Positions 4,202-58,336 of a stretch of 64,000 bases of DNA are shown here, one piece after another (position 1 is the first letter of the stretch; each line of letters starts with the position of its first letter). The stretch lies in IMG/VR virus record IMGVR_UViG_3300033463_000004, positions 128,001 through 192,000 of that record; one strand, given 5' to 3'. The stretch is from a virus (Duplodnaviria; Caudoviricetes). Position numbers and translations under genes: made by a program. Under the pieces are notes generated by a model that did no database searches, was not told the DNA's origin, and saw only the letters and a program-made list of their open reading frames with translations.

Positions 4202-5605
4202 ATGGAAGGATTACTCCAATACATTGATCAGATCGATCAATCGGTTGCAGATGCTGAAATCAATGTCATCGAATCATTGATTCAATCATATGATAAGTCA
4301 ATTACGATCATCACAGAGGCGTCTGATGATACAGACTTTTCTGCTTTCGATATCTTCCAGGAAGGTGAAAAATGGGATAAGTTCAAGGAAGATACAAAAG
4401 CTCCTATGTTTGGTAAAAAGGGCGAAGGTCTTATCAAACGAATACTGATGATTCTCCCGCGATTGATACAGAAGTTTGTGGCATTAATCCGCAGGCTTGT
4501 ATCAAGAAATAAAAGTTTCGAACAAAAAATGGATAAAGATATACAACAAATGAAGCAGCAAGCAACCACCGTTGTGGCAGAGCCTATTACTGATGAACAG
4601 GCTAAAATTATTGCCACCCGTGCAAAGGAACTTGAAAAGAAAAAACATGAAGAAATGCAAGCGGCTTATGATAAGTCTGCGGAAGAAGTTAAGCAGTCCA
4701 GCAGAGATTTGGAAGCAACAAAGAATCGTACGATGGATAGCATCTCCGCACGACACGCCGCATTCTGGCAATCATATGACGAGCTGATGAAATCATTGTA
4801 CGGCTCCGATGTACCAACACATTCTGAAACTATGCAAAGTATCAACAACATCGCAGATTCTATTCAGAAGATCGACAAAAAGAATCCGGGGTTTGCCGAT
4901 CAAGTTCTCGAGGAATTGGGAGCCCCGCCTCGTAAAAAGACAAAGCTCGAAGATACAGAAATTACAGTCAGAAATACGACATTCTTTGGTGCTGGTTACA
5001 GCGTACCAGAAACGACTGTATATGACGAAGATAACATAGGGGATCCTGTCGGAATGTGGAAATCATCGATTCCAGACGTGGTATCAAGAGATGCTTCCCT
5101 TGAGGAAATCAATAAATATAATAGAACGCTGATCATTGTACGTGACGAGTATAACAGACGAAATGAGAACTTCTTTCAGCAGCGGGGTACTCGACTCTTC
5201 AAAGTGAAATATAGCGAAGCATTGCATGTGTTTGAAGAGATGAAGCGTAAATTCGAGGAAAGCGTTGTTTCAAACAAAAATCTTATCTCGGTACTTGAAT
5301 CAAACGCGAAATGGCTGAGTGACCAGTGTGAAAGATTATCCGGCGAAGCAAATATGCGTGCTATAGAAATAGCTCAACGTGATAAAACATCTGTTGATAA
5401 TGTAAAAAATACTGACGCTGAGACAAAAGATAAACTTGAGAGAGCCAAAGCATTGCAACGCTCAACATCCTTACTCACTCAAATAGTATCACTCATTACA
5501 AACTTAATCGCTAATAAGGAAAATGAGTGGAATATAAACTACAAAGTTGTGAAGTCACACCTTGAGGCAATGACACCTTCTACAGTAGCGGATATCGATT
5601 TGTAA
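4202..5605 (+). CDS. Probable internal head protein (acidic propeptide plus coiled coil)
   Basis: Acidic N-terminus ending at 'IFQE|G', followed by a basic amphipathic helix (LIKRILMILPRLIQKFVALIRRL), a layout typical of phiKZ-type processed head proteins. Confidence 0.5.
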   Translation: MEGLLQYIDQIDQSVADAEINVIESLIQSYDKSITIITEASDDTDFSAFDIFQEGEKWDKFKEDTKAPMFGKKGEGLIKRILMILPRLIQKFVALIRRLVSRNKSFEQKMDKDIQQMKQQATTVVAEPITDEQAKIIATRAKELEKKKHEEMQAAYDKSAEEVKQSSRDLEATKNRTMDSISARHAAFWQSYDELMKSLYGSDVPTHSETMQSINNIADSIQKIDKKNPGFADQVLEELGAPPRKKTKLEDTEITVRNTTFFGAGYSVPETTVYDEDNIGDPVGMWKSSIPDVVSRDASLEEINKYNRTLIIVRDEYNRRNENFFQQRGTRLFKVKYSEALHVFEEMKRKFEESVVSNKNLISVLESNAKWLSDQCERLSGEANMRAIEIAQRDKTSVDNVKNTDAETKDKLERAKALQRSTSLLTQIVSLITNLIANKENEWNINYKVVKSHLEAMTPSTVADIDL

Positions 5606-26100: not shown

Positions 26101-27905
26101 GGACGATCATTTGTTGCAGTCATCTGCCATACGTCTGCTGCTGAACCAGATTGAATACCAACCCAATCGTACATTCCACCAATCAAGTCATTACCCCAGA
26201 AGAAGAAATTTCCATCAGTGGAATCAACTGTCGATGATGTCAATTGTTTTACATAACCGGCAGCTAAATCATATGCAGATTTAACAGCAGATGGTGTGGC
26301 TGCTAATGCTGTTGATGTTGATGATGTAGATGATGATAATTTGACAAGACCATATGCCGATGTTGTACCAGCTGGAACTGTTGCGGTTGTTGCAGATCCG
26401 GTAGATGGTGTTAATGTGACAACGTACGTTGCATCACTCGCAGCTCCTGACAATGAATATGTTGTATTCGTGTCACTACCAGGAATACCCAACGCAGTGA
26501 TATCCGCTTTCACAACTGCTGTAGAACCAGTGATATGTCCTTGTGCATCATATTTGAATTTCAAAAATGAATTCGATGTTACTGCAGTAACAGAATTCGT
26601 ATGACTTAAACGCACACCAGAATTGAATGTCACAGCACCATCATCGGTTCCAATTGTCGTTGTTGTAATTGTAGCAGTTATACCACCATTCGCCGTAACA
26701 GATGATGGTGATAATAAACTGATCCAATCTTGCCAAACAGTACTACTTCCACCGTTATCATTTTGACGATATAGCAACATATTTCCTGCATATGGCATAA
26801 GTTGAAATTTATCGGAACCAGAATCTCCCTGGATACCAATCCAGTCATAGCTTCCATTACCTAATAAATTATCACCATAGAAAAAACAAGATCCCGCGGT
26901 AGAATCAACTGTTGATGATGTAAATAATTTTGGTGCAAGGAATCCATCAAATTTAGTCGCAAAAATTGTACCAGATGCTGGTTGACAATAAATTGCCTGT
27001 GTTGTAAACGTCGTATCTGTCACAGTTGATGGTGCGAATCCAGCAGTTGCACTATTGGATGCACCTATTACGAGTGGACGATAATTTGTATATGTCGATC
27101 CAACTGCGGTTTGTGTAACCTTCGTATCAGTATTAGTATTCGTCTGACAATAGATATCTGTTGACGTACCGTTGATCTTAATTGTACCAATCTTTGTTCC
27201 AGAGGTGAGTACTTGTGTGAATGACGTCGTCCCAGTATTCAGAACTGTTCCTGATGTTGCCGGAAATGTTTGAATGATTTCAGAATTCGTCGATGAAACT
27301 TTGAATGTGTGGTACGATGTTCCAGGAGAATATAAACGGATCAAGCCCTCTTCATTGTCAGCTGTTCCTGAAGCTGTTGAATTACCTAATATCAACCGTG
27401 AATTACCGACTGCTGATGTTGTACCTTTGGTATGATTGAACTTAATTGATGCCATGATATTAACACCAGCAGTACCTGCGCCAGTTACAAACGTCGGCAT
27501 GTAAGAGGTGTCAGCAGTTGATGCAGGTAATAATGTCGCAGTAACCTTGGTATCAGTATTGGTATCATCGTGATAATCATTCATAATCCATGAGGTTCCA
27601 TCATATGTAAATGATACAATGGATCCAGCAGGCCATGATGCTGCAACAGTTGTACCAGGAACTGTTGTTCCATATCTATACACATTCTTTGCTGCAGTTG
27701 ATCCGACCTTTAATGTCGGTGAAGCAGCTGTATTTGAATATGTAAATTTGACATGGATTGTGACTCCGGATAATAATTTATCGAAATCTGCACATGTGAC
27801 AACCTTTGCTGCGGTTGCAGCTGCTGTGTCACATGTTCCATATAATGTAGAACCAATCAAGCCGGTACTACCGGCTGAGTCGGTTATCTTACCTACAAAC
27901 GGCAT
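23184..27905 (-). CDS. Long tail fibre / receptor-binding protein
   Basis: Thr/Ser/Gly-rich; 'GLVKLSSSTSSTSTALAATPSAVKSAYDLA' fibre repeat; HTH(S/P)Y.PLAG knots; GHITG repeats. Confidence 0.85.
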   Translation of the reverse strand: MPFVGKITDSAGSTGLIGSTLYGTCDTAAATAAKVVTCADFDKLLSGVTIHVKFTYSNTAASPTLKVGSTAAKNVYRYGTTVPGTTVAASWPAGSIVSFTYDGTSWIMNDYHDDTNTDTKVTATLLPASTADTSYMPTFVTGAGTAGVNIMASIKFNHTKGTTSAVGNSRLILGNSTASGTADNEEGLIRLYSPGTSYHTFKVSSTNSEIIQTFPATSGTVLNTGTTSFTQVLTSGTKIGTIKINGTSTDIYCQTNTNTDTKVTQTAVGSTYTNYRPLVIGASNSATAGFAPSTVTDTTFTTQAIYCQPASGTIFATKFDGFLAPKLFTSSTVDSTAGSCFFYGDNLLGNGSYDWIGIQGDSGSDKFQLMPYAGNMLLYRQNDNGGSSTVWQDWISLLSPSSVTANGGITATITTTTIGTDDGAVTFNSGVRLSHTNSVTAVTSNSFLKFKYDAQGHITGSTAVVKADITALGIPGSDTNTTYSLSGAASDATYVVTLTPSTGSATTATVPAGTTSAYGLVKLSSSTSSTSTALAATPSAVKSAYDLAAGYVKQLTSSTVDSTDGNFFFWGNDLIGGMYDWVGIQSGSAADVWQMTATNDRPLFRQKDTDTWSDWVGLLTPGCITSGDNVITVTENSQTIGSGNTAVTVKYGVSLSHKTYTSKSSGVYKITVDGTGHVSAASALDATDVSGLINKLSTGSSTPVDADYYVSQYVGGGTSTTTYHRRPMSALWSYVKGKADSVYAPISHTHSYIPLAGSDQISGDLKFNATGKGIYLKDSGSNVYAGISDNGTNLWIGAKSSSVAGHVGKTYISTGYDSTNSKGNMTINVYLPNASNSSHSTEYPILHTGNLLAGTGLSIATAASTSYTGNTYTINHTDSVTAVTTAGLYKIKYNASGHITGTASVAASDLPSHTHPYLPLAGGTMDASATITIPSSNANSCRLTYYGTQFQVINSSWARGITVFSDDWSTAIGSFGAFSANNTETQYFYMGTAYNNTWLRLYKDSILLSDADNAGFVINYQPANLSSSYSGSFVKMIPGNSYGYGLFLGYTHGGITMISSGESGKNLFETAFDASLTPYSSAFSVTEERMIISSDTNITFITGSDSLSTTAHEDWTNLRTIYIDSQGVFCPSIDKKGQIGYSTARWNWGYFANVNISNSSWAPLTIHREGTGTAAIKFTNVNNNATQTLGYLALASTTGLFRHYLSNGSTYYDIIDTSVKAVSGAWFDKFPWIASDGAMGIGSGINFHTSDTATSTYDWNIAAASTTLKIQNSSKSWVFNSNGLLTIPGQISTIGNVYIKCKSSDKQRVTLADLMAHFISQGYIHASTWEHVIIQSKYSYDYNDILQFTVDGIYYEMHLCGATFEFIGMCENTGSHPPQSYGTYLLKITSGAEQRIGTITSGYYEFPSGHTATYHLSQNTNYNPHWTIDGYSNGREEIQPLLADQTWNNTSGGNVSNASVTCTDAIMTQWKLLYCVMTCTISTSSTDSGEGSYGFRFNFLIPIKYLLAVSGTGVSYNVGIGYHPNWGSSSSYGPHLTLNVGYSNNYTLTFTGSRWTSTSYYLKFKSIRIYGIM

Positions 27906-30348: not shown

Positions 30349-32304
30349 TCAAACGACGTTCAATGTGAGAATATCCAATTCAATAACTGGATCATCACTC
30401 CATGTTCCATCTGCACGGAGATAATGCGTTCCGTTTGTTCCAGATGCAGCAGCAGGTACAAGACCGTGTGTGCCAGCGGCATTTGCTGTTGATCCAACAT
30501 AATCCGAATTATTGTTGGAACCAAGTTGATTCAAATACTTCCACTGAGCAGTACCTGAAGCAGAATATACTAAAATCTGATCTGCAGCACCACCTGTCGG
30601 AATATGTTTGTTTCCGGCTGTTGTTGGGTGTGTATATATCGTTAAATCTGAATCTGGTTTATCACTGTATTTGCGCGTGATAACGCCATTGGATTTATAT
30701 ATAACATCCAATAATGCAGATACCGAAGGTGATTTCAGTGATACGAACGTTGTACCACTCCAACGATATGTTGGACCATCATCTTTTACCGGATCACTCA
30801 GGTCAACATAGATTTTATCACGTGCAGGCGTGATCTCTTGTGTTTTTGCAGAATCAGAGTAAATCTTTCCTGCCGTAGAATCATAGTAACACTCAATAAC
30901 ATCATCGACATATGATGGCAAATAAATCGAGTTAACAACTTTTGCACCACCATCAGTGATAATCAAATCATTTGTCGAGTCAGGTTTTGCTGGAACAAAT
31001 GCTGTTGTCGGTTGATAAGCTGCGGTGTTCAAACCATGAATTGTGACAGATTGTGCAGTTCCACCAGAAGGTGTAACAGTAAACTTACCATTTGTCGAAC
31101 CTTCCGCAAATGTGTATGTTGTATCTGTAAACACAGCGTCTGAAGGAACAGACACATTTACATTACCACCGATTGTATAGTTGTTTACCTTACTGACGAT
31201 ATTTGTTGCAACGATTTCACCTGCATTTGTTGATAAGTAAACACCTGTGTCAGCAACAGATTCAACTGCTGCTGCTGTCGTCGTAGGTGTTGTTGTTGTA
31301 CCAAGTAAATATGCTTTATGTGTTTCATCTTTGGTAACATTGACTTTGGTATCAGTATTGGTATTCGTTTGACAATAGATATCTGTTGACGTACCGTTGA
31401 TCGTGATCGTACCAATCTTTGTTCCAGATGTAAGCACCTGTGTAAATGAAGTTGTTCCGGTATTCAGAATCGTACCAGCTGTTGCAGGTAATGTTTGTGT
31501 AACATCAGCTGTTGTTAATGAAGCAGATGTTAAGATATTTGCATATGATCCACTTGTAACTGCTAATGAACCAACTTGCAATCTACCCGCAGTTGTAGTC
31601 AAGAATACACCAGTATCAGCAATTGATTCAACTGCTTGGTTGGATGACGTTGGTGTTGTTGATGAACCTAATAAATATGCCTTTGTTGTTGTACCAAGCT
31701 TCATATTAACCTTGGTATCAACATTCGTTTGACAATACAGATCCGTCGATGTTCCATCAATCGTAATCGTACCAACTTTTGTACCAGAAGTCAGATTACG
31801 AGTAAATGAAACTGTTGATTTTCCTGATGCTAAATCATATGCCGATTTAACCGCCGATGGTGTTGCAGCAACAGTTGTAGATGTCGAATCTGTTGCAGAT
31901 GAAAGTGTTGTAATACCATATACAGATGTAGATGCCGTTGGAACAGTTGACGTTGTGGCTGATCCGGTTGACGGTGTTAATGTTGTAACCCATGTATTTC
32001 CATCATATGCTCCGGATAAACTGTATGTCGTATCAGTGAATACTGCATTCGATGGAACATCCTTACCGACCGTATGTCCATTGACGGTTGCAGCAGCACC
32101 GGTCCATACAACAGAATGCCAATTGTTATACCAGTTTTGAATTTTACCCAATGCAAGCGCTAGGTCTTGTCCATGGGGGTGTTGTTCCGTTGTGGAACCA
32201 TCAATGTTTGAAGCATGGTTATTACCGCCTTCAACAGTGACATCTGAAGTAGCTTGTGAAAATGTAACATTTATTTTTACTTCATTAAATGTCTTGCTTG
32301 ACAT
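30349..32304 (-). CDS. Tail fibre protein
   Basis: Fibre repeats shared with 23184..27905; 'LPSYVDDVIE', 'GLVPA...YLRADGTW'. Confidence 0.8.
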   Translation of the reverse strand: MSSKTFNEVKINVTFSQATSDVTVEGGNNHASNIDGSTTEQHPHGQDLALALGKIQNWYNNWHSVVWTGAAATVNGHTVGKDVPSNAVFTDTTYSLSGAYDGNTWVTTLTPSTGSATTSTVPTASTSVYGITTLSSATDSTSTTVAATPSAVKSAYDLASGKSTVSFTRNLTSGTKVGTITIDGTSTDLYCQTNVDTKVNMKLGTTTKAYLLGSSTTPTSSNQAVESIADTGVFLTTTAGRLQVGSLAVTSGSYANILTSASLTTADVTQTLPATAGTILNTGTTSFTQVLTSGTKIGTITINGTSTDIYCQTNTNTDTKVNVTKDETHKAYLLGTTTTPTTTAAAVESVADTGVYLSTNAGEIVATNIVSKVNNYTIGGNVNVSVPSDAVFTDTTYTFAEGSTNGKFTVTPSGGTAQSVTIHGLNTAAYQPTTAFVPAKPDSTNDLIITDGGAKVVNSIYLPSYVDDVIECYYDSTAGKIYSDSAKTQEITPARDKIYVDLSDPVKDDGPTYRWSGTTFVSLKSPSVSALLDVIYKSNGVITRKYSDKPDSDLTIYTHPTTAGNKHIPTGGAADQILVYSASGTAQWKYLNQLGSNNNSDYVGSTANAAGTHGLVPAAASGTNGTHYLRADGTWSDDPVIELDILTLNVV

Positions 32305-47720: not shown

Positions 47721-50700
47721 TTATTGACCGTTCCATGTTTTTGCAATTTGACGCTTGAGATTAATCAAGACTTTATTTGCAGCAGCTGTTAATACAACAG
47801 ATGGAATCATTCGCTTTAAGATACTACCTGCCGATACGAACATTGAAATCTCTTCATCAGGATCAGTTTCACCGTATGGTTCCAATCCTTCAGGAACAAT
47901 TTCAGAGATGACTTGTTTTGATGCAGCATAAACAACGCATTTATCTCCGATAGATACATCATCACTATGTTCAATGTATATTTCAACAAGAACATCACAA
48001 CGAATTCCTTTGATTGTTTGACCTGATAAAGGTTGTGTTGGTGCACTATACAATGTTCCCATTTTCATGACAGAATCATTCTTATCATATTTATCGAGAA
48101 TACGACGTTTCTGAATATTGTCTTTGAAATGTTTATCAATTATCTCAAACAATGACGGAGATAATCTGTCAAGTGGTCTGTTTGTATAAATACGAATGTC
48201 TTTTACAACTCCAGCATGTTTAGAACGAACAACACGTTTTGCAGTATCTAAACTACTACCAGCATCACGGAATGCATTCAAGAATGAGTCAACTGCTTTG
48301 TCACCAGTATCTCCCAGACCAAATACGATCAGAGGATCACCGATTTCAATTTCGTCACCAACTTGAACAATCTTTTCAATGTCATCAGTTGCTTCCAATT
48401 TTGATGCTTGACACATTGTCACGTGCGTTCCGAGTCGTTTGGACATTTTATTTGTCATAATGCCAGCATCTTCATACGTGGCATATGTTCCACAGAATGC
48501 GACTTTTGCCAATGGTCCAACATTCATTCTCACCATTCCAGAAGAATCTTTTGAGAAGAATTTGGTATGATATGCAAGAATATCATTCTTCACAAATTTG
48601 TCTCCTTTTTGGAAATTTGATACAAGTTTATTGTCGACATAGAAACCTGAACCAGGATTGAATGAATATCTGGAATTAACCGGTATTGCTTGTTTCTGTT
48701 TTGAATCATATTGTACGATCATGTATCCATCAGCGATATCGAGAACTTGACCATTCTCTTTTGCTGTTACTGCAAATTCATCTGACAAATATGACGCAGC
48801 AATCTCATCAATACCATTTGAAACAAGAACCGGTTGAGCATCGTCAACTGGTAGAATATGTCCAGTTTGTGATGTTGCGATTGCAGTACGAATTGCATCA
48901 TCATGCGTAACAGTTCCTGGTGTTAACAGTTCAGAGAATGATGCAAGTTGTAAATCGTTGAATTCTGTTTCAGATGGGTTATCTGCAACTGTATAACCAC
49001 GGACAGATGATACTTTCGGATCAACTGTAAGTTGACGCACCATACCAACATTTGCAGAGTTTGGTGTTGACATTGCCATCTTACCAATCATCGATTCATC
49101 AAATGAACGTTTTGCTTCTGTGTATGCTTTAGCTTGGTTAACACCGCCATATCCTTTTTTGGTAATAGTTTCATCTTCATGAAGTTCGATCATCGGATTC
49201 AAAGCAGATGATGTTGATACAGTTTCAGTTGCCATCAATTCATTCATGATTGCCATGCGGTTGAATACAAGTTTATTATCGCGCGTTTTTGAACCGACAG
49301 CATTGTTATACTTCGAAATTGCAACCGCGAGATGATAATGAATCATTGCAGGAATAATTTCAGAAGAACGAATTCTGTATAATGATGAATTATTTTCTGA
49401 TGTGAAATTGTTATCTGCTAACATATGTGCGGCATAAATCAACATGTCACAAATGTTATTTGGAACATGATAATGCTGACAAACATCTTCTGTGATTGCA
49501 TCTACGAAGAAATGATAATATGTGATAAATGTTGTGCGTTGTGAATATTGTTTGAAGAATAACTGATTGAAGATATCAACAAATACAGAATTGTCATCCA
49601 TAATTGTCGTCTCAAAATCAGTTGAATTGTACTGACGTGTATTGATGCGATAAAAACCATTGAAAATCAATTGGTTTAAAACCGTATTTTGTATTGCAAG
49701 TGTTCGATCCTTAAAAGGAATCTTTAAGAACCCTGGAACATTCTCTCTCGGTGCAACGTATTTATATTGTGCACCAGAACGTTTTAACAGAGAAGGCATT
49801 CCTTCCCATGCTGCAATAGCAACACCCAACGGAATCAATACACCGATCTTAATATCAGCATACATGGAAAGCTTATTGGGTTTTCCTTTTGTATATAATT
49901 GCACAATATCGGATGGTAAATATTGTGTAATGATTTCTGTAATGGATTTACCATGACGATCCAAACCGGTTTCTGTATTTAAAACAATTGGAACTTGATT
50001 TACCATTCCACAACAGAATTCATTTTCTCCAACTGTGACAAATCCGAAATCACGTTGACATTGATCGCGGTTGAAAATAATTTTACAATTTGCATCTTTA
50101 TTTTCAAACATATACCAACGACGTGCATATTCATCATATTCAATCGTCGAAACGAATCGGTTGTTTGTAACCATTGAACTTCCGTATTGAACATATGGGT
50201 TTTTACCTTTTGAATCGTTCTTTGATGCAACTGCTTTCAGCATCATTGTAATGTCAACAAGAGATTTTGTATCATATCTTGAAACTGTAATCTTGTTGTA
50301 ATTTGTTGTCAGTATTACTTTTTTCTTGTTGATTTTCAAAATCGGAATCGGGAAATCCTGTTTTCCAATATTATAATATGAACCGTTATAAAGAAAACGT
50401 CCGTTGTTCATCACAGGAACAACGATGTCAATATGTGATTGTGAACCAGACCGTTTATTCTTTAAATGTACACGCCAATTATGCATCAATGATATTGGTG
50501 TTGATATATCTGTCACATCAATCTTTGTAACATTAAATCCTTCCGGAAGTTTCTGTAATGTCATGAATGTGGATATAATGTCTTGATCCATCATATTCTC
50601 TTCGTATGCTTGCGCAATTTTTGGAAATGATGTACCACGTTGTGCTCCAGGATTCAATGTTGTAATCTTCGCAGGTTTAATTGGTTCTGGTAACGGGATA

Positions 50701-51926
50701 TCTGTTACAGAACTCAACGAATTCACATTTAAGTCTTTTAATTGAATTTGACCAATATTGGAACGAAGTTGATATTCACGCGCAGATGTTGTTGTACGTA
50801 ATACAGAATCTTCATTCGTTGGTGTACGCATTGTCGCAATTGATTTTGATGCTTGATTAATCAATTGATTTTCAACGGGATTATCACCGCCAACTTCTAG
50901 ATCTGCTGCAATACGTTTATAATTTGAAACGGTTGTTTCGTTTGGAGTGATACGATGTAACAATTGTGTGTTAATATCAAATGTCTTTGCACGATAGATA
51001 CCATCTTTTTCACTACTTCCGGCAGCAATCCCAAACTTATCTTTGATTGCCTGAATCGATGATGATAACTTAGAACGTGTCCCTGATCCACCATTTGTCG
51101 GGGTTGTATCTTGTCCATTATCGTTTTCTGATGTGTTTGCATTAATAGTATCCATCATTTCATCCAACGATTCGTCTTCGTCAATCGATGACGTTGTTCT
51201 TGGACCATTAAATGGTGAACCAATTGAATGACACATTGTATTCAGATTCTCAACATCACTTTCTGATATTGACCTGAGATCCATCTTATAATCAGCAAGG
51301 GTTGATCTGAAAATAACTGTGATATCTTGTGATGTTGGTTTACCAGAACCAGAACGATATGAACCAATCAATCCATTAATCAAATCTGATTTAACCGTTT
51401 CTTCTGAATCATAAATCTTATACCGATCCGTATTTACAATCAGAATCTTTTTCTTTGCACCGGTAAACTGCTGCATCAATGTTGACATCATTTGCGGTGC
51501 ATTTCGTTCAATATATTCTGCAGATAATGATTTCAATGATTGATTTAAATAACGCATCACATCAGACATTGAAATATATACGTCATCCTTAGACAATTTA
51601 TTGATCGGAGGTTTTACAACTTGAATGGCAGGAATCAATTTCTGTTTCATTAAATAATCAACTTTTTTCCGATATTCACTTTCGGAAATAGAATACCGTA
51701 CATTCACGGGTCCTATTTTACTATTTAAAGAATACGGAATTATAATTTTTTTAATTACACGAGGTGGCGGCATTTTCTTAATCAATTCAAGATCATATTC
51801 ATACGAACCTGATACCAAGAAAACCGCCACGTCTTCCGTATCTTTTGGAAGCGTATAAATCGAGCGTGATGCTTGAAAATTCTTTCCAGTGGAAAGATCA
51901 GTTGCTTCCTGATATAAAAAAGACAT
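47721..51926 (-). CDS. Multisubunit RNA polymerase beta-like subunit (probably the virion RNAP) with a long N-terminal extension
   Basis: STPNSANVG, IATSQTGH, 'GPLAKVAF..YATYEDAGI', IGDK..SKQVIS, 'SILKRM'; ends before the beta C-terminal clamp region; RBS AAGGAG before ATG 51926; LYQE|A near the N-terminus. Confidence 0.85.
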   Translation of the reverse strand: MSFLYQEATDLSTGKNFQASRSIYTLPKDTEDVAVFLVSGSYEYDLELIKKMPPPRVIKKIIIPYSLNSKIGPVNVRYSISESEYRKKVDYLMKQKLIPAIQVVKPPINKLSKDDVYISMSDVMRYLNQSLKSLSAEYIERNAPQMMSTLMQQFTGAKKKILIVNTDRYKIYDSEETVKSDLINGLIGSYRSGSGKPTSQDITVIFRSTLADYKMDLRSISESDVENLNTMCHSIGSPFNGPRTTSSIDEDESLDEMMDTINANTSENDNGQDTTPTNGGSGTRSKLSSSIQAIKDKFGIAAGSSEKDGIYRAKTFDINTQLLHRITPNETTVSNYKRIAADLEVGGDNPVENQLINQASKSIATMRTPTNEDSVLRTTTSAREYQLRSNIGQIQLKDLNVNSLSSVTDIPLPEPIKPAKITTLNPGAQRGTSFPKIAQAYEENMMDQDIISTFMTLQKLPEGFNVTKIDVTDISTPISLMHNWRVHLKNKRSGSQSHIDIVVPVMNNGRFLYNGSYYNIGKQDFPIPILKINKKKVILTTNYNKITVSRYDTKSLVDITMMLKAVASKNDSKGKNPYVQYGSSMVTNNRFVSTIEYDEYARRWYMFENKDANCKIIFNRDQCQRDFGFVTVGENEFCCGMVNQVPIVLNTETGLDRHGKSITEIITQYLPSDIVQLYTKGKPNKLSMYADIKIGVLIPLGVAIAAWEGMPSLLKRSGAQYKYVAPRENVPGFLKIPFKDRTLAIQNTVLNQLIFNGFYRINTRQYNSTDFETTIMDDNSVFVDIFNQLFFKQYSQRTTFITYYHFFVDAITEDVCQHYHVPNNICDMLIYAAHMLADNNFTSENNSSLYRIRSSEIIPAMIHYHLAVAISKYNNAVGSKTRDNKLVFNRMAIMNELMATETVSTSSALNPMIELHEDETITKKGYGGVNQAKAYTEAKRSFDESMIGKMAMSTPNSANVGMVRQLTVDPKVSSVRGYTVADNPSETEFNDLQLASFSELLTPGTVTHDDAIRTAIATSQTGHILPVDDAQPVLVSNGIDEIAASYLSDEFAVTAKENGQVLDIADGYMIVQYDSKQKQAIPVNSRYSFNPGSGFYVDNKLVSNFQKGDKFVKNDILAYHTKFFSKDSSGMVRMNVGPLAKVAFCGTYATYEDAGIMTNKMSKRLGTHVTMCQASKLEATDDIEKIVQVGDEIEIGDPLIVFGLGDTGDKAVDSFLNAFRDAGSSLDTAKRVVRSKHAGVVKDIRIYTNRPLDRLSPSLFEIIDKHFKDNIQKRRILDKYDKNDSVMKMGTLYSAPTQPLSGQTIKGIRCDVLVEIYIEHSDDVSIGDKCVVYAASKQVISEIVPEGLEPYGETDPDEEISMFVSAGSILKRMIPSVVLTAAANKVLINLKRQIAKTWNGQ

Positions 51927-51957
51927 ATTATCATCTCCTTGAAAGGTGGGTTTACAA

Positions 51958-52155
51958 ATGAATTCCAAACATACCTATTACCACACTTGCCCATATTGTG
52001 GTGCAAATCTTGATCCTAATGAATCATGTGACTGTCAGTATGAAGTTACAGAAAAGTCTGAGGAAAGTAAAGTGAATAATTCAGATGTATTCTCAAACAA
52101 ACGATCTTCGTTTTGTGACAATGGAAGATATCACAGGAATGAAGGAAGAACTTAA
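51958..52155 (+). CDS. Small Zn-ribbon protein
   Basis: CPYCGANLDPNESCDC; RBS GAAAGGTG. Confidence 0.6.
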   Translation: MNSKHTYYHTCPYCGANLDPNESCDCQYEVTEKSEESKVNNSDVFSNKRSSFCDNGRYHRNEGRT

Positions 52156-52353: not shown

Positions 52354-52537
52354 TCAGAATGGTCAACCATGGGTATGTAAACCTCCTTTCTTAATAAAGT
52401 CTATTCGGTACCTCCTGCTTGGCAACAGAATTTCGGGTGTTCGGTCATCATAAACTTGCGTACTGGGCCACGCAAGTTATTGACCATTCTGAGAGAAGAT
52501 GATGACGGCGGGGAAACCCGCCGTCTCATTCTTTTTT
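52354..52537 (+). ncRNA. Candidate small RNA with two anti-Shine-Dalgarno motifs
   Basis: 13-bp perfect closing stem (52354-66/52480-92); ACCTCCTTTC and TACCTCCT in the loop; 9-bp hairpin at 52453-78; AAACG-N6-CA at its 5' end; GAAA-loop terminator at 52504-52537. Confidence 0.55.
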
Positions 52538-53138
52538 ATTCGTCATCATCGATAAATTCTGCACACAGCATTCCACCACTCATATTCACAAGTCGTTGAA
52601 CAGTCGATATTGATATAATCATTTTCGATCGTTCTTCCGGTGATGACTTATAGAATTTTGATACAAGTTGTGATACATTATTCACAATTGTCGGTTTTAA
52701 AGTTTCCGTCATTTTCCGTCTAATGTCAGATGGAGTTATTTTATAATATTCTAAAATATCTCCAAACATTTGAGTGAAGTTAATTGGTTCTTTGTAGAAA
52801 AACCATTCAAATGATCTTTCAAATGTATCACTATCATATCGATCCAACCACACATAGCAATATATTTTTGGTTGTTTAATATGAATAATTTCCAATACCT
52901 CTTGTAATTTTGATTGAGATATTGTATTCGTTTCAGAATTTAATAACTTCACGAGTCTGTCATTCAATGTTGTCAATTTGATTGTACCGTAATCTACGGC
53001 TTTACATAATGCTGACATCAGGATATCATTGTTGACTTTCTTGGAAAAATCAACAACTGGTTTGATATCAACGACATCATGTAACTTCTCAACAGATTCT
53101 TTTGTAATCATTGCTTTTGCTTCTTCCAAAGTCAACAT
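52536..53138 (-). CDS. Early hypothetical protein (possible HTH-like domains)
   Basis: RBS AAGGAGG; TATATAATT at 53196-53204 and a 5' hairpin GTGTCATG/CATGACAC. Confidence 0.7.
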   Translation of the reverse strand: MLTLEEAKAMITKESVEKLHDVVDIKPVVDFSKKVNNDILMSALCKAVDYGTIKLTTLNDRLVKLLNSETNTISQSKLQEVLEIIHIKQPKIYCYVWLDRYDSDTFERSFEWFFYKEPINFTQMFGDILEYYKITPSDIRRKMTETLKPTIVNNVSQLVSKFYKSSPEERSKMIISISTVQRLVNMSGGMLCAEFIDDDE

Positions 53139-53258: not shown

Positions 53259-54032
53259 TTAGTATCTCGCCATATGAGATGCACTCGGATCAAGCTTGAA
53301 CATATAATCCATCTCACACAGACAGTACTCAATGATTGCTCGATTGAGACCTTCCTCTGCAGACATGGTATTACCAGCATAAGCTGCTTCAGAAACAAAC
53401 TTTGCAGAGATACGAAGAATGACAGATTCATTCGTTGATTCATCTGTTGCAACATTTGATTTTCTTTCCACAAGCTTTTCATCAAGATCAGTAAATACCG
53501 GTGCAGCATTTGATTGTGTAATGACCTTTGCAACATCATTAACAACCTTTTTAGATACGACTTCTTTGATACGTTTCCGGAGTTCATCATAGTTCTCAAT
53601 ATTCTCGAGTTCTTCTTTCAGATCCTCCGAATCGGCTGTGGTAGAATCATCCTGACGATCAACAACTTTTGACTGAACAGTCATGGTCTTTGCATCAATC
53701 TCCTGAATAATATCAGAGAGAATTGGTGAATTGAGCTTGTTACTTGCCTTGCACAGATAGTCATAGCAAGAACAACCATAATCATCATGGATGTGTTTCA
53801 TAATGGACTGATCAATCATTCCATCAAGATCCTTTGTCTCATCATGCATCATTGCACAGATGAGATCCTTAAGAACATACAGTGACAGCTTCTCACGGAA
53901 CTTACCTGCATCAAATGTGTGTGGCATATCCACACCAGGATTTTGATGAATCGTTGAGTTTACCGTGTTCGGAAACTTGTTGTTGGCGCCATCAATGATC
54001 GCATCCAACATACTTTTGATATCAGCCGGCAT
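53259..54032 (-). CDS. Hypothetical probable head/virion protein
   Basis: RBS AAGGAG; same operon as the polyprotein; TNES/VSEA motifs. Confidence 0.6.
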   Translation of the reverse strand: MPADIKSMLDAIIDGANNKFPNTVNSTIHQNPGVDMPHTFDAGKFREKLSLYVLKDLICAMMHDETKDLDGMIDQSIMKHIHDDYGCSCYDYLCKASNKLNSPILSDIIQEIDAKTMTVQSKVVDRQDDSTTADSEDLKEELENIENYDELRKRIKEVVSKKVVNDVAKVITQSNAAPVFTDLDEKLVERKSNVATDESTNESVILRISAKFVSEAAYAGNTMSAEEGLNRAIIEYCLCEMDYMFKLDPSASHMARY

Positions 54033-54053: not shown

Positions 54054-55712
54054 TTAATAACATTGGCTGGTGAAATCTGCTTTAGTGAAATCCTTCTTTT
54101 TCAAAGATTCTTTCGTGATAAACAGATAAGCATTGCCATTGTCACCCCAACCGATGAAATCGTCGCTCGTCAATTGAAGCAACGTGACACTGTTATTTTT
54201 GTTATATCTGGAATCTCTGATGTCGTACTGGATGAATGCTGGATATCCACCGATTTTGTCTGCTCCACATGGATAGTCCCAACGCGGGAATGCATTTGGA
54301 TACTTAAACACCAATTGAAAAACATCTTCTGCAGTATGTGTTTTGGTTGTATCGTATTCATTCCATTTCTTAGCAAAGAGCTCTTCATAGTTATTGATCT
54401 CATCGCTGGTAGAAGGATTCAATGATTCTTTCATAGTTTTGAATCCGACATGACGCAAGACCGGTGAACCTTCAAACCACGGATCTTCCAAATAATCGGG
54501 TCTGTTATATACATTATCAGAAACCTGGTCAGCAATCGAAGGTTTTTTTGTATCTGAATAATACAAGACCTTCGATTCTTGTCCACCTTTTCTAAGGGGT
54601 CCCAACCATAATTGCAGAATACCACTTGTAGGAAGATCCGGTATCGCTCTAGGAACATCTGCGAGATTGATTTGGATTATGAATCTCATCTCTTTACCGT
54701 CGGATGTTTTTGGGATCACTGGAGCATATACAGGTTTTCCATACGCGCAGGAATCGTCAGGTTTCGGATTTTGTAAAGCATGGAAATCTGTTAATACAAC
54801 AACATCTGTTTGTGTTTCTGACTTGATTTCATCAAGAATCTTTTTGAACAGAGTTCTTTCGATTGGGAAATCGGATGGGATTGATTCTTTCTTATCAGAA
54901 GTTTTTGGTTGTGGTTTGGCTCCAGGGAATTTTTTATTGGCATTTTCTTTTGCCTTTTCCCACATCTTACTGAAGAATCCTTCTTGAATCATACCATTGT
55001 CATTGATGTAACGTTTATACATTGACTTGACATATTCTTCGAAGGTTCCATTAAATTCTTTTTCACCCTTTGTGTCGTAAACATATACTGAGTTTTTATA
55101 GTATAACAAAGCATCATCGTGTTGTATTACACCAAACACGAGTTCGCCATCCGTATACATTTCGTCATCATCAGATTTTGTATACCACGCGACAGTCTCA
55201 GCATCTGCGAAGAAATAATACGTTTCGTAACCATCTTCATCTTTTACTTCGAATTCGCTGGCTTTTACAAGTGCTTGATATTCCTTTGATTTGAATACCT
55301 TAACAAACTCAGCTGGAAGTTTTCTACCGAGCCACGTTTCAATGTACTCGACATCATCAGGTTCAGGTCTCGTAAGAACTTTTTCAAGTTCGGCGAATGT
55401 TGATGCAAGCTCATGTGTCTTTGTACCATTTCTGAGCATATAAGACTTTGACGCAATATCATAATAGATAGAAGCGTCATTAGAACATTCGAACAGAGGA
55501 ATTTGTGTTCGAATAATGTTCATTTTAAGCAACATCTTAGCTTGCCAGATACGGGTGACAATATAGATAGTATTGTCTATTTTGACAAACTTTCCACGCC
55601 ATCCATATCCATTTCTTGCGTTGTTAACAAGAAACTTTTTAAGATCGTCTGGTAATGGTCCTGACATTTTTTCAATTTTTGAGACAGTCTTATTCGCCAT
55701 CAACTGGCTCAA
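54054..55712 (-). CDS. Two SMI1/KNR4(SUKH)-like domains plus DUF1963/YwqG; probably the -1 frameshift extension of 55709..58108
   Basis: 'VSKIEKMSGPLPDDLKKFL...LASTFAEL', 'DDVEYIETWLGRKLPAEF...GTFEEYV', 'KIGGYPAFIQ...LLQL...WGDNGNAYLFI..ESLKKKDF...QCY'; no RBS of its own. Confidence 0.75.
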   Translation of the reverse strand: MSQLMANKTVSKIEKMSGPLPDDLKKFLVNNARNGYGWRGKFVKIDNTIYIVTRIWQAKMLLKMNIIRTQIPLFECSNDASIYYDIASKSYMLRNGTKTHELASTFAELEKVLTRPEPDDVEYIETWLGRKLPAEFVKVFKSKEYQALVKASEFEVKDEDGYETYYFFADAETVAWYTKSDDDEMYTDGELVFGVIQHDDALLYYKNSVYVYDTKGEKEFNGTFEEYVKSMYKRYINDNGMIQEGFFSKMWEKAKENANKKFPGAKPQPKTSDKKESIPSDFPIERTLFKKILDEIKSETQTDVVVLTDFHALQNPKPDDSCAYGKPVYAPVIPKTSDGKEMRFIIQINLADVPRAIPDLPTSGILQLWLGPLRKGGQESKVLYYSDTKKPSIADQVSDNVYNRPDYLEDPWFEGSPVLRHVGFKTMKESLNPSTSDEINNYEELFAKKWNEYDTTKTHTAEDVFQLVFKYPNAFPRWDYPCGADKIGGYPAFIQYDIRDSRYNKNNSVTLLQLTSDDFIGWGDNGNAYLFITKESLKKKDFTKADFTSQCY

Positions 55713-58108
55713 ATTTGAAAAAAACCTTCTTGAACATTTGATGTCAACTTGCTTTTGAATTTAGACCATGATTTCGCAATGACAACTTTTTCCGAATTCA
55801 TCTTGTCAAGGAAGAATACATCATTCGATTTGAGATCAAAGAATAACGTAAATTGATCACCCGATTCAATAGATTCAGCTGTGCCAATTTGGATTTTCGT
55901 ACAGGGATACTTTTCGAACGTTGCGATATCCTCATCAACAGAAGTCTGTTTTCCGTTGTTAATCACAGCAATCATATGTCTTGCGTCTTCATCATAATAT
56001 TCAGACCAGTCAGCAAGATGTATGTCGACAATCAAATCACTAATCAAATCACTAATACCGGATGCAGAATATTTAAATTCCCCATCACAGTTACTATTGC
56101 CTTGTTCAGATGCTTTCACATCATCCCTGAAATCAGCAGGCATGTGATCTTCGGCATATTTATAAATAGCCGATCTCAGTCTACTTCTTTCATCAACTGA
56201 TTCTTGAACAGGTTTACCCATCTTTGCTTCAACCATCTTCAGAACACCGGTTGCTTCTGAAACAAATGCTTGAATCATTCTCTTGACAGTCATGATACTT
56301 CCCTGATCGATATCTGCACGAAGCATCTTAATCAGATCAGACAGACAATGATTCAGTTTTAAGAGTTGATTGCGTTCAGTTTCATTAAAACTTTTTGTCA
56401 TTTTAGAAGCATGATGGACTACACGATTGAGCTTCCATCCTTCTTTCTTGAATTCAGAACAAATTTGCTCAATCTCCATATCGGAGCTATTCAATATGCC
56501 GAGCGCTTTTCTGAGGTGAATATCCAGCTCCTTATTAATATTACCTCTTGTCAGAAAAAAAGCTTCTTGCTCCACATTATCAACCGGCGGAACATCGGAA
56601 TCAACAGGTGGTTGAACATTTGTATCAGAACTCTGTAAGAATTCTTTCAGTTTTTCCATTGGCATGCTCTTCATCTTTTCTTGTGCTTGTGCAAGAATTT
56701 CATCCATTGACATATTATCAAAGTCAACATCAGAAGTTTCTGCTGGCATGTCATCAACTGCAGGAGCAGCTTCATCTCCACCGCCGAGTTCTGCATTCAA
56801 CTCATCTTCGGTCGGAGCTTCGTCTCCACCCAGATCTGCATCAACACCATCGATATTTACATCGTTCTCAGCATTTGCATCATTCTGGGTTTCATCTGCA
56901 ACCTTCTCTGCGATTTGGTCAGATACATTATTCGTATCGACGACTTCTTTGTTCTCACCATCTGCAGGAGTTTCGGTTCCAGTATCACCTTCAACAGGTG
57001 CTTCGGTTCCTTCTGCAGGCGGAGCAGCTGTTGTATCATCACCAGCAGGTTGTTCCATACCATCTGCTGGAGGAGCATCAAATGATACTGCTGGAGCATC
57101 AGGATTTGCAGCAGGTGCTTCATCAGGATTACCGAAATCAATTGCTTCTTGAACAAACCGACTCGGTGCACGATAACCTGATGCGATCATTGCAGCTTCC
57201 TGCTGAATTGCAACGCTCTTTGTCATTGTGTAAATATGAGGAATATCCATTGTTGTTACAGTGGATTCACCACCTTTAATAGGTTGACTCCATTCAACAA
57301 ATGACTTTTCACCGGTACTGTCGATTTCAAACTCAACGACAACTGCCAATTTGTCAGCTGGCTCTTTTGGAACCGTAATACCGACAGGAGTGATCTTATC
57401 CCACAATGCATCAGAAGTCTGTGCGTCAACCTTTGGACCGAACTGAGTGAATGCAGCCTCCTGAATTGCTTCAATGCCATTTTGACGGAATGCGATAACA
57501 CTGTCAAGTTGCTTCTTTAGAATCGTACGATTCTGTGCAGCCTCGAAGTTAACATCGAGCTTAACAGAATAATCTTTTCCATACAATGTACCACATTCCA
57601 TGACAATCTTCGAAGGAACACGATCATCATGAAGTTCAACTCGATCAAAACCGAACAAACCTTCCTGAATGCAGTAATTTTTGTATGCTGCAAACTGCTC
57701 TCTGGCAATTCCCTCAACACGATTTGCAAATTCCTCGTCAGATTCGCGTTGATACTGCATCGTAGTATTATACGCTTCCTGATAGAAATCATTCATTGTT
57801 TTCATTCTGGTGTAATCTGTATCAGACTCCTGAACATTTGCATCACCAGGAACATTCGTGACACGACCGTCAAGAAGATTCATCTCAACAGCAGTGATTT
57901 CAATATCATCTTCCAAAGGAATATCAATCTTAGTGAACGGACGAGAGCTACCTGCTTCAGTTCCTTCGACACTCAGATCATCCAGCTCTTGGAAGAGATG
58001 CGCACATTCCAGAATTGCTTCATTCATTTGTGCTTCTTCATTTACAGCTTCAAAAGCTTTTGCTTCTTCTTGGCGAGCTTTAAGCTGCTGGCTGATGTAA
58101 TCAAGCAT
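55709..58108 (-). CDS. Acidic probable internal head polyprotein with many QE sites and a C-terminal SUKH-like domain
   Basis: VQES, YQEA, IQEG, QQEA, VQEA, EQEA, VQES, VQEG; Asp/Ala/Pro-rich linker; 'HMPADF...LFFDL..NDVFFLD...VIAKSWSKF'; RBS AAGGAG before ATG 58108. Confidence 0.7.
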   Translation of the reverse strand: MLDYISQQLKARQEEAKAFEAVNEEAQMNEAILECAHLFQELDDLSVEGTEAGSSRPFTKIDIPLEDDIEITAVEMNLLDGRVTNVPGDANVQESDTDYTRMKTMNDFYQEAYNTTMQYQRESDEEFANRVEGIAREQFAAYKNYCIQEGLFGFDRVELHDDRVPSKIVMECGTLYGKDYSVKLDVNFEAAQNRTILKKQLDSVIAFRQNGIEAIQEAAFTQFGPKVDAQTSDALWDKITPVGITVPKEPADKLAVVVEFEIDSTGEKSFVEWSQPIKGGESTVTTMDIPHIYTMTKSVAIQQEAAMIASGYRAPSRFVQEAIDFGNPDEAPAANPDAPAVSFDAPPADGMEQPAGDDTTAAPPAEGTEAPVEGDTGTETPADGENKEVVDTNNVSDQIAEKVADETQNDANAENDVNIDGVDADLGGDEAPTEDELNAELGGGDEAAPAVDDMPAETSDVDFDNMSMDEILAQAQEKMKSMPMEKLKEFLQSSDTNVQPPVDSDVPPVDNVEQEAFFLTRGNINKELDIHLRKALGILNSSDMEIEQICSEFKKEGWKLNRVVHHASKMTKSFNETERNQLLKLNHCLSDLIKMLRADIDQGSIMTVKRMIQAFVSEATGVLKMVEAKMGKPVQESVDERSRLRSAIYKYAEDHMPADFRDDVKASEQGNSNCDGEFKYSASGISDLISDLIVDIHLADWSEYYDEDARHMIAVINNGKQTSVDEDIATFEKYPCTKIQIGTAESIESGDQFTLFFDLKSNDVFFLDKMNSEKVVIAKSWSKFKSKLTSNVQEGFFQI

Positions 58109-58189
58109 AATGAAATTCTCCTTTACAAATTTTTTTATAAATAGAGACACATATCGTTTTCATGTGTGGCGATATGTTATCTCTATTTA

Positions 58190-58336
58190 TTATAGTATGA
58201 CACCAAATGTTTCAAGAAAAATCTCTGAAACCATTTCTGGTGTTAACTCTGAAATACCAACGTCTTCTAATTCAAGATCACCTTCAAGTGTGGTCCCGTT
58301 GATAGAAGGTTTGTTTTCAAGTTCATTATAATCCAT
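58190..58336 (-). CDS. 48-aa protein (YNELENKPSINGTTLEGD fibre-type motif)
   Basis: RBS GGAGG before ATG 58336; motif common in Firmicute phage fibre proteins. Confidence 0.6.
   Translation of the reverse strand: MDYNELENKPSINGTTLEGDLELEDVGISELTPEMVSEIFLETFGVIL

Follow-up and report, generated by a model that had tools for sequence, protein, structure and literature searches.

Background

Why would a phage string together domains of the type that bacteria use as immunity proteins, and why would it place them behind a long acidic protein punctuated by hydrophobic-Q-E motifs? This question is raised by the interval 54054-58108 (minus strand) of a 64,000-nucleotide stretch of DNA, called here the window, which covers bases 128001-192000 of a phage genome of 262,694 bp and 37% G+C (IMG/VR record IMGVR_UViG_3300033463_000004). 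We think that the interval most probably encodes a carrier that is processed by the head protease and packaged, and that would deliver immunity-type binding domains into the cell together with the DNA. We give this reading a probability of about 0.55. Packaging, cleavage and ejection are inferred from sequence, whereas the analysis shows which folds are present, how the motif is distributed and conserved, to which family the protease belongs, how carrier and variable cargo are arranged and how the two frames lie.

The RNA polymerase beta-type subunit encoded next to the locus has about 30% identity to its counterparts in uracil-DNA jumbo phages (those of Staphylococcus, the PBS1/AR9 group of Bacillus, Listeria phages and Yersinia phiR1-37), and on this ground the phage appears to be a distant, uncultured member of that broad group. 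We take it to be an AR9/PBS1-like jumbo phage, and the protein to be a probable internal head (ejection) protein made of a conserved carrier and exchangeable cargo.

A conserved carrier and its variable cargo

A first-pass annotation of the window had read the interval as a single polyprotein gene. This part of the proposal has to be given up, because the interval consists of two open reading frames (ORFs) in different frames: ORF1 stops at a TGA (55709-55711) and ORF2 lies in the -1 frame. The two frames and the parts of the carrier are the following (residue numbers of ORF1 start at an upstream GTG, at 58150, and are 14 higher than those counted from the ATG at 58108; a slash in a motif marks the predicted cut).

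55709-58108, minus strand: ORF1, 799 residues, carrier and first SUKH cargo, with the ATG at 58108 as its true start
57662-58108, minus strand: N-terminal propeptide-like region, residues 15-163; modelled by AlphaFold 2 (AF2) as a long helix, a disordered stretch and a helical hairpin
57146-57661, minus strand: conserved alpha/beta domain with a DUF6985-like fold, residues 164-335; predicted local distance difference test score (pLDDT) above 90; ends with FVQE/A at 335
56564-57145, minus strand: acidic linker, mostly disordered, residues 336-529; 53 D+E and 6 K+R, isoelectric point (pI) 4.05; ends with EQE/A at 529
56201-56563, minus strand: four-helix bundle, residues 530-650, pI 9.2; generic bundle matches with Z-scores of about 11; ends with GKPVQE/S
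54054-55712, minus strand: ORF2, 552 residues, in the -1 frame relative to ORF1

The ATG of ORF1 at 58108 is preceded, 8 nucleotides upstream, by the Shine-Dalgarno sequence AAAGGAGA. In the AF2 model of ORF1 (813 residues, alignment of 99 sequences, mean pLDDT 73.7) a long N-terminal helix and a disordered stretch lead to a helical hairpin and a confident alpha/beta domain (119-330), after which come an acidic disordered region (330-530), a four-helix bundle (538-644) and an alpha/beta cargo domain (650-807). The acidity noticed in the first-pass annotation is thus found again, both in the whole protein (pI 4.3) and in the composition of the linker. Four conserved sites (FQE/L at 55, VQE/S at 108, YQE/A at 125 and IQE/G at 163) fall in or at the end of the propeptide-like region. 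As regards the alpha/beta domain, residues 172-307 superpose on a DUF6985 cluster of the ESM Atlas with a template modelling (TM) score of 0.66 (120 aligned residues, root-mean-square deviation (rmsd) 2.5); the Pfam matches to DUF6985 are weak (E 0.004-0.1), and hhalign against the DUF6985 cargo of relatives gives an E-value of 0.003 with a probability of only 10%.

Other searches with the two products were silent. Neither ORF matches a PHROG; both ORFs, searched by Megablast and tblastn in 50,697 phage records, found no match, so that the family is absent from the isolated phages represented there; and neither Pfam nor PHROGs reports a peptidase, a MuF or an enzymatic domain in ORF1 or ORF2. 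In fold searches with the 813-residue model the PDB lists were swamped by the four-helix bundle, and the BFVD library of viral structures gave nothing.

A search for homologues retrieved 257 proteins, and the counts for the family given here and below rest on 120 of these. The homologues listed are all metagenomic, none with a functional name, and many lie on contigs of 175-281 kb. Family members share a carrier of about 635 residues. In 73 of the 120 a cargo of 70-750 residues begins immediately after the motif [KE]-P-V-Q-E/[GAS], which is conserved wherever cargo follows; the other 47 have fewer than 25 residues beyond the last carrier site, or end before it. A Pfam scan of the 73 cargos found SMI1_KNR4 (20), SUKH_6 (18), DUF6985 (20) and DUF1963 (5), and nothing else credible. 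When the cargo is split at the Q-E sites it falls into 16 sequence clusters, often joined by QE/GFF, whose order varies between phages. Orthologues with a conserved N-terminal carrier and variable cargo had been predicted, and this is what the family displays. The pattern recalls the way in which polymorphic toxins are built, except that here the variable part consists of immunity-type domains.

Hydrophobic-Q-E motifs and the head protease

All eight hydrophobic-Q-E/[AGS] motifs reported in the first-pass annotation are present, seven in ORF1 (NVQE/S at 108, FYQE/A at 125, CIQE/G at 163, AIQE/A at 231, FVQE/A at 335, PVQE/S at 650, nucleotides 56201-56212, and NVQE/GFF at 808, nucleotides 55727-55738) and one in ORF2 (MIQE/GFF at 244, nucleotides 54981-54992). 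The seven of ORF1 compare with 0.11 expected from composition (Poisson p 4e-11) and with 0.32 if the rate found in the remaining genome is applied (Poisson p 5e-8). Conservation of the sites, counted in the alignment of the 120 carriers, is as follows.

site 55, FQE/L: kept in 116 of 120
site 108, VQE/S: kept in 107 of 120
site 125, YQE/A: kept in 103 of 120
site 163, IQE/G: kept in 104 of 120
site 335, hydrophobic-QE/A: kept in 120 of 120
site 529, QE/A: kept in 109 of 120
site 650, VQE/[GAS]: kept in 72 of 120; in the others the carrier is mostly followed by little or no cargo, and 19 are gapped at the site

In the AF2 model these sites (55-650) are located in disordered stretches or between domains, and among sequences of 35-68% identity they are kept more strictly than the residues around them. 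The idea that the motifs mark domain boundaries therefore stands for the conserved sites, which lie in linkers. It does not stand for sites 231 and 318, which are inside predicted helices and kept in only 12 and 47 of the 120 sequences, nor between the second and third SUKH domains, where we found no Q-E site. Cutting at every site would be predicted to break the N-terminal region into four peptides of 2-6 kDa and to release the DUF6985-like domain (19 kDa), the acidic segment (20 kDa), the basic helical bundle (14 kDa) and the SUKH domain of ORF1 (18 kDa); an attached ORF2 would add a SUKH pair of 29 kDa and a DUF1963 piece of 35 kDa.

Is this motif a cleavage site of the phage? Genome-wide statistics were drawn from 204 non-overlapping ORFs of at least 100 residues, the two ORFs of the carrier locus excluded. 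There are 31 occurrences of hydrophobic-Q-E-[AGS] where composition predicts 11.0 (2.8-fold, p 5.5e-7). Among hydrophobic-X-E-[AGS] variants Q is the most enriched residue at P2 (2.8-fold), E is the most enriched at P1, and P3 favours V, I and F (about 3-fold). Eleven of the 31 sites fall within the first 60 residues of their protein (15% expected, p 0.004), and the motif is enriched in proteins of the head module. The major capsid protein (genome 114369-116642, minus strand, 757 residues) has VQE/S at residue 121, within a motif F-[LM]-[VIY]-Q-E/S-Y-N that is invariant in 120 homologues; identity to the query is 0.4-0.7 before the site and 0.9-0.99 right after it, a signature that we read from the alignment as that of a boundary between propeptide and mature protein. 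The head protease (genome 121693-122580) matches Peptidase_S80 with 28.5 bits (cut-off 23.4) and the PHROG 'head maturation protease', and itself carries VQE/A at residue 20. Peptidase_S80 is the family of phiKZ gp175. The motif of phiKZ gp175 is S/A/G-X-E and that of T4 gp21 is L/I-X-E. More generally, proteases of related giant phages cleave after Glu, and the SPN3US protease gp245 cleaves behind A-X-E and cuts long propeptides at several places, many internal proteins being ejected (PMC10052503). Because of the invariant capsid boundary, the S80 protease and the enrichment throughout the proteome, hydrophobic-Q-E/small is very probably the maturation site of this clade, the specificity of the protease being deduced from these sequences; the motif thus behaves like the head-protease site that the first-pass annotation had taken it for.

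The following observations concern other proteins with the motif. The predicted capsid propeptide, of about 121 residues, is shorter in relatives of about 660 residues. The RNA polymerase beta-type subunit (1415 residues, window 47721-51968, minus strand), downstream of the carrier gene on the same strand, has SFLYQE/A at residue 21, which would fit a packaged virion polymerase subunit with a short propeptide. A paralogous set (window 4202-5605, plus strand; genome 120098-121177, 231073-232299, 234800-235960 and 111044-112159) shares a helical N-terminus of about 55 residues (..AEINV.ESL..SY.K..) ending in F-[ED]-[IV]-F-Q-E/G, and resembles the propeptide-bearing paralogue families of giant-phage head proteins. 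Beyond the window, a multi-domain protein of 1550 residues (genome 225246-229898, minus strand) contains DUF6582, a GNAT acetyltransferase and a weak match to Gln_amidase, a papain-fold toxin (20.7 bits, below the threshold of 24.1); its hydrophobic-Q-E sites include TKPVQE/S at residue 502, the same linker as at the carrier/cargo junction, and from its sequence it is a candidate for a second packaged 'polyvalent' protein.

The cargo domains

Behind the carrier lie four domains, the first encoded by ORF1 and the other three by ORF2 (AlphaFold model from an alignment of 10 sequences, mean pLDDT 74.9).

55727-56200, minus strand: cargo 1, divergent SUKH fold, ORF1 residues 651-808; ends with NVQE/GFF
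55371-55712, minus strand: cargo 2, SUKH fold, ORF2 residues 1-114, from structure matches
54993-55367, minus strand: cargo 3, SUKH fold, ORF2 residues 116-240; followed by MIQE/GFF (54981-54992)
54057-54851, minus strand: cargo 4, DUF1963/YwqG (TYPP) domain, ORF2 residues 288-552; preceded by a K/P-rich linker (245-287)

Structural comparison carries most of the weight for the second and third domains. Cargo 2 matches Syd (3ffv, Z 9.0), a Bacteroides SMI1/KNR4 protein (3d5p, Z 8.5) and the RhsPI immunity protein (8bd1_B, Z 8.2); cargo 3 (ORF2 116-239) matches 2icg (Z 9.1), the Knr4 core (Z 7.5) and FBXO3 (Z 7.3); the next unrelated matches in these searches fall to Z 4.4. By sequence alone the sole detectable SUKH domain is ORF2 118-228, which scores 19.7 bits against Pfam SMI1_KNR4 (E 0.0014), below the cut-off of 25.4, and there is no Pfam match for cargo 1 or cargo 2; the family relatives P0055 and P0042 pass the Pfam threshold for SUKH-type domains (E 4e-10 to 1e-16). 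Cargo 1, which is homologous to the cargo of P0027 and P0006, matches 3d5p by Foldseek (probability 0.96), and its ESM Atlas neighbours are all Syd or SMI1-KNR4 proteins, at TM scores of 0.47-0.61 (0.52-0.56 with the Atlas model, up to 0.61 with the AF2 model). Its profile found nothing among PDB sequences, hhalign against the Pfam-positive SUKH cargo of the family aligned the C-terminal helix only (probability 37%), and an exhaustive representative search gave just two matches, a fragment of the same protein and a spurious repeat protein. The SUKH assignment of cargo 1, made from models, is less well supported than those of cargo 2 and 3.

Cargo 4 is recognised by sequence as well, with 103 bits against DUF1963 (PF09234; cut-off 23, E 4e-29), and it superposes on YwqG of B. 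subtilis (1pv5) with Z 18.8 (232 aligned residues, rmsd 3.4, 25% identity). ORF2 holds KIGGYPAFIQ, and GGYP.F.Q is kept in all six DUF1963 cargo sequences aligned; a conserved GGxP motif and a conserved Gln are the hallmark of TYPP/DUF1963 (PMC4275035). Three SUKH folds and one DUF1963/YwqG domain, as the first-pass annotation had it, are therefore supported at the level of modelled folds (by Foldseek, the ESM Atlas and PDB structure matches), and its computational predictions on segment folds and orthologues came out as expected. It had also counted DUF1963 among antitoxin domains, and here we differ: the literature describes DUF1963, the YwqG family, as a member of the TYPP superfamily for which a protein-binding or chaperone-like role is proposed (PMC4275035). 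We considered DUF1963 as a SuFu-type immunity domain and rejected this on the same TYPP placement (PMC4275035). For SUKH the precedent is a different one, no other immunity superfamily directed at polymorphic toxins (nucleases, deaminases and others) being as widespread (PMC3113570; PMC3482391).

The junction between ORF1 and ORF2

How could the larger part of the cargo be joined to the carrier? ORF1 ends in ..NVQEGFFQI-stop, and immediately 5' of the stop runs GGTTTTTTTC, which contains seven T.

55718-55724, minus strand: T7 run, slippery heptamer U_UUU_UUU in the frame of ORF1, the only link between ORF1 and ORF2
55672-55717, minus strand: modest hairpin, which begins 4 nucleotides past the heptamer and contains the ORF1 stop TGA (55709-55711)

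The heptamer stands in the exact X_XXY_YYZ phase of the zero frame, with the stop two codons on. Stepping back one base at T7 gives ..NVQEGFFSNLSQLMANK.. and continues into ORF2; a -1 shift, or an eighth T, reads ..QEGFFSNLSQLMANK.., and the trans-frame peptide predicted from the -1 shift is GFFSNLSQLMANK. The shifted product restores the junction QEGFFS[NK] of the family. Upstream of the first ATG of ORF2 (55698-55700) we found no Shine-Dalgarno sequence, and an AGGAG of that type precedes 72 of 204 ORFs of the phage (counted with crude ORF starts).

Relatives tell us about the history of this junction. In L001/P0003 (an IMG/VR contig of 277 kb) the homologue is a single ORF of 1130 residues, whose junction ..VTVQE GFFSKIGDAMAGRTVSKLEKM.. 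is encoded without a homopolymer (GGT TTC TTC TCC), and in P0006 (1282 residues) a domain like cargo 1 is followed by an in-frame ITQE/GFFSKIG.. and then by the same SUKH pair. Since both read the junction in one frame, the ancestral state is one polyprotein. The T7 run is also present in L003 and L004. L003 is a mosaic: compared with window 54054-56800 it has 95-100% nucleotide identity down to about 55400 and about 75% from about 55380 onward. Its breakpoint is the boundary of the second and third SUKH domains, and modules are therefore also swapped at junctions without a Q-E site. Given its 95-100% identity at the junction, with divergence confined to the downstream part, we rejected L003 as a diverged relative that conserves T7. 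Apart from the present phage, T7 is carried only by relatives whose sequence at the junction is nearly the same, and the relatives that have diverged simply read it in frame. Altogether 7 independent contigs, taken from ENA, JGI and Logan assemblies, encode the identical 799-residue product of ORF1, and in each a separate DUF1963 ORF of about 548 residues follows it; a sequencing error as the cause of the frame break was rejected, the same allele being found in at least 7 assemblies of different sources. A search for junction alleles with T6 to T9 in metagenome and viral contigs gave 0 matches, our own records being possibly masked, and it has no bearing on phase variation.

From these sequences we regard recoding and a fixed split as roughly equally likely. 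Taken by itself, the explanation without recoding is a serious one, to which we would grant a little less than even odds: a deletion of one nucleotide (T8 to T7) would have split the ancestral polyprotein, only the first SUKH domain would be delivered, and ORF2 would be a decaying remnant, or else a protein of its own that stays out of the capsid and is translated after reinitiation at the overlapping TTGA or at the nearby ATG. It accounts for a stop and a change of frame that are real (shared by at least 7 contigs, L003 and L004) and agrees with the in-frame, homopolymer-free junctions of the relatives and with the weakness of the hairpin; moreover L003, 95-100% identical at the junction, is hence not independent evidence that T7 is conserved. 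What it leaves without a reason is the exact phase of the heptamer with a stop two codons later, the recreation of the QEGFFS[NK] junction by the shifted product, the lack of a Shine-Dalgarno sequence before ORF2 in a phage where AGGAG is frequent, and the fact that ORF2 is intact in two backgrounds which are about 25% apart in nucleotides downstream.

Neighbouring genes

Two ORFs lie directly downstream of the locus, at 53259-54032 (minus strand, 257 residues) and 52536-53138 (minus strand, 200 residues), a position that is kept in L001, L002 and L003; neither has a Pfam or PHROG match or a Q-E motif. Just 5' of the carrier gene, an ORF of 48 residues (58190-58336, minus strand) has its own Shine-Dalgarno sequence GGAGGTG, and its sequence ..ELENKPSINGTTLEGDLELEDVGI.. 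resembles a short motif that gives PHROG 10372/36614 matches in two tail-fibre-like ORFs (23184-27905 and 30349-32304). Between this small ORF and the ribosome-binding site of the carrier lies a near-perfect inverted repeat (about 58135-58190, minus strand), AAATAGAGA.ACATATCG ... CGATATGTGTCTCTATTT, which from its sequence could be a terminator or a regulatory hairpin.

Discussion

The mechanism that we favour would run as follows. The protein would be made late, and its N-terminal helical propeptide would take it into the prohead core, where the prohead protease, of the S80 (phiKZ gp175) type, would cut after hydrophobic-Q-E at exposed linkers between domains. Such cutting would chop the propeptide into small peptides and free the DUF6985-like domain, the acidic disordered segment, the four-helix bundle and at least one cargo domain of 18-35 kDa. 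The folded domains would remain in the capsid and enter the cell along with the DNA, and there the SUKH, DUF1963 and DUF6985 domains would bind and block host proteins ahead of any phage gene expression, the most likely targets being toxin-type effectors such as nucleases or deaminases. The block SUKH-SUKH-DUF1963 would be attached, and packaged, only in the fraction of products that arises from -1 frameshifting or slippage. Packaging, cleavage, ejection, recoding and targets are the deduced steps of this scheme, and the cargo could be directed at host defence, at the toxins of neighbouring bacteria or at effectors that the phage itself packages.

A number of points weigh against this scheme. 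The phage is uncultured, and both it and the family are known from metagenomic sequence alone. The locus sits between the genes of the DNA polymerase and the RNA polymerase, outside the head module, and no toxin partner was found nearby (the neighbouring ORFs 53259-54032 and 52536-53138 are without family matches). A profile of the N-terminal part of the carrier found nothing in the genomes of AR9, Goe21 and Staphylococcus phage DC4, so that there is no homology link to known virion proteins; the N-terminus aligns loosely with five other predicted propeptides ending in hydrophobic-Q-E, and by BLAST it is not significantly similar to them. All cargo domains but the first of the four lie outside the frame of the carrier and would be attached only through a -1 shift, for which the hairpin is a modest signal (-10.3 kcal/mol, z -2.1, with 9 of 200 shuffles folding equally well); no fused protein of about 1350 residues at about 100% identity is among the homologues listed, and the T7 allele appears to be fixed. 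Finally, DUF1963 (PMC4275035) and DUF6985 are without a demonstrated immunity role (a literature search found no paper mentioning DUF6985), and SUKH folds also occur in non-immunity proteins such as Syd, Knr4 and FBXO3.

Could the protein do its work without ever entering a capsid? A cytoplasmic poly-immunity or anti-defence protein, with Q-E motifs that are conserved linkers or recombination junctions, would suit the place of the gene beside the two polymerases; bacterial polyimmunity proteins, in which SUKH and other immunity domains are fused, act uncleaved in the cytoplasm (PMC3482391), and the QE/GFF junctions do coincide with the points of module exchange. We think nevertheless that this is unlikely, because the same motif is invariant at the capsid propeptide boundary and enriched in head-module proteins and at N-termini, because the sites lie in exposed linkers and outlast their surroundings in evolution, and because an N-terminal region that is cut to pieces of 2-6 kDa, with an acidic segment of 194 residues behind it, has no evident cytoplasmic role. 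Slightly less probable again, to our mind, is a carrier that serves mainly as core or scaffold of the prohead, its immunity-type domains keeping the packaged toxic effectors of the phage itself inert. An acidic, multiply cleavable and largely helical or disordered protein does look like a scaffold or core protein, and the 1550-residue protein, with its GNAT domain, its weak Gln_amidase match and its KPVQE/S linker, is a candidate for a packaged effector in need of an inhibitor; that match is nonetheless below threshold, and the absence of cargo from 47 of 120 members, with variation of the cargo between close relatives, fits an arms race with external targets better. We find it improbable, finally, that the cargo shields the infected cell from the toxins of its neighbours in the rumen (delivered by type VI secretion, type VII secretion/LXG or contact-dependent inhibition systems) so that the infection can be finished. 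Among immunity proteins against polymorphic toxins none are commoner than those with SUKH domains, 'orphan' polyimmunity arrays give protection from the toxins of non-kin (for both, PMC3113570 and PMC3482391), and the cassette-like polymorphism of the cargo resembles such arrays. The present evidence does not separate this explanation from an anti-defence one; protection of this kind has, however, no need of proteins ready at injection, and would leave a cleavable design targeted to the head unexplained.

Packaged anti-defence cargo as such is already known, and in this sense the mechanism is not categorically new. T4 provides a precedent: its protein IPI, processed by gp21 and packaged in the head, inhibits a restriction nuclease, and foreign proteins fused to IPIII or to its targeting sequence are packaged and delivered (PMC9026906). 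As is proposed here, IPI*, IPII, IPIII and Alt are targeted by a propeptide to the prohead core, cut after Glu, retained in the capsid and ejected, and the set of internal proteins varies between related phages as the cargo does in our family (PMC9026906). The T4 internal proteins differ from the present case, in which a multi-domain carrier of about 635 residues with about seven conserved cuts would hold several cargo domains in one chain; the SUKH, DUF1963 and DUF6985 cargo is without similarity to IPI, the protease is of family S80, the motif is hydrophobic-Q-E, and the comparison is based on sequence. With the gp53/gp54 proteins of SPN3US and the inner body of phiKZ (processed by gp245 and gp175) the phage shares the protease family (Pfam S80). 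Ejection proteins of giant phages are cut after Glu, have long, multiply cut propeptides shared among paralogues, and include a packaged virion RNA polymerase (PMC10052503, PMC5694885); no sequence or fold match between them and the present protein was found, the motif here is hydrophobic-Q-E where SPN3US uses A-X-E, and the papers searched hold no report of immunity-type cargo in phages of the SPN3US/phiKZ type.

Bacterial polyimmunity proteins resemble the cargo itself. They fuse several immunity domains, with SUKH as common denominator and no adjacent toxin gene, and are proposed to act as a polyvalent safeguard, set up in advance, against toxins of various kinds; the searched part of the paper, in which its immunity families are listed, contains neither DUF1963 nor DUF6985 (PMC3482391). 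In contrast, the present protein belongs to a lytic jumbo phage and has a carrier cleavable by the head protease, with protease motifs between its modules. Polyvalent proteins, which occur in phages and conjugative elements, and MuF-fused toxins are multi-domain proteins predicted to be packaged, delivered with the DNA and processed into effectors; their domains are enzymatic or anti-restriction ones, in many cases accompanied by a peptidase or by a MuF/portal anchor, and the paper describing the polyvalent proteins has no mention of SUKH or TYPP (PMC5512222). Here the cargo consists of binding domains and the cutter would be the head-maturation protease, so that the resemblance is in logic only. 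The Dar proteins of phage P1 (DarA, DarB, Hdf and Ddr) are anti-restriction proteins that are loaded into the head, some of them processed, and injected to protect the DNA (PMC12810830; PMC5512222); they are unrelated, protect or modify DNA, and lack the modular design of carrier and cargo. A literature search on SUKH/KNR4 domains in the virions or packaging of jumbo phages found nothing relevant.

Conclusion

A wider picture can be drawn, which we offer tentatively and consider somewhat doubtful as a whole. A clade of rumen and gut jumbo phages would practise the delivery of 'polymorphic immunity', in a mirror image of bacterial polymorphic toxins: behind a conserved carrier targeted to the head, C-terminal cassettes (SUKH, DUF6985, DUF1963 and about a dozen unknown modules) would be swapped by recombination at QE/GFF, cut free by the head protease and injected as inhibitors, ready for use, of toxin-type effectors of the host, with a -1 frameshift in the present phage setting the load of long cargo. 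If the reading that we favour is true, a whole phage clade would use the bacterial toxin-immunity repertoire as exchangeable cargo delivered by the capsid. This would be a new source of inhibitors for defence effectors of the nuclease or deaminase type, and would give a functional context to DUF6985 and DUF1963. The cleavage products can be predicted exactly, and the cargo domains, being small, should be readily expressed. The natural loading signal (the propeptide with its hydrophobic-Q-E linkers) could also serve to package proteins in jumbo phages.

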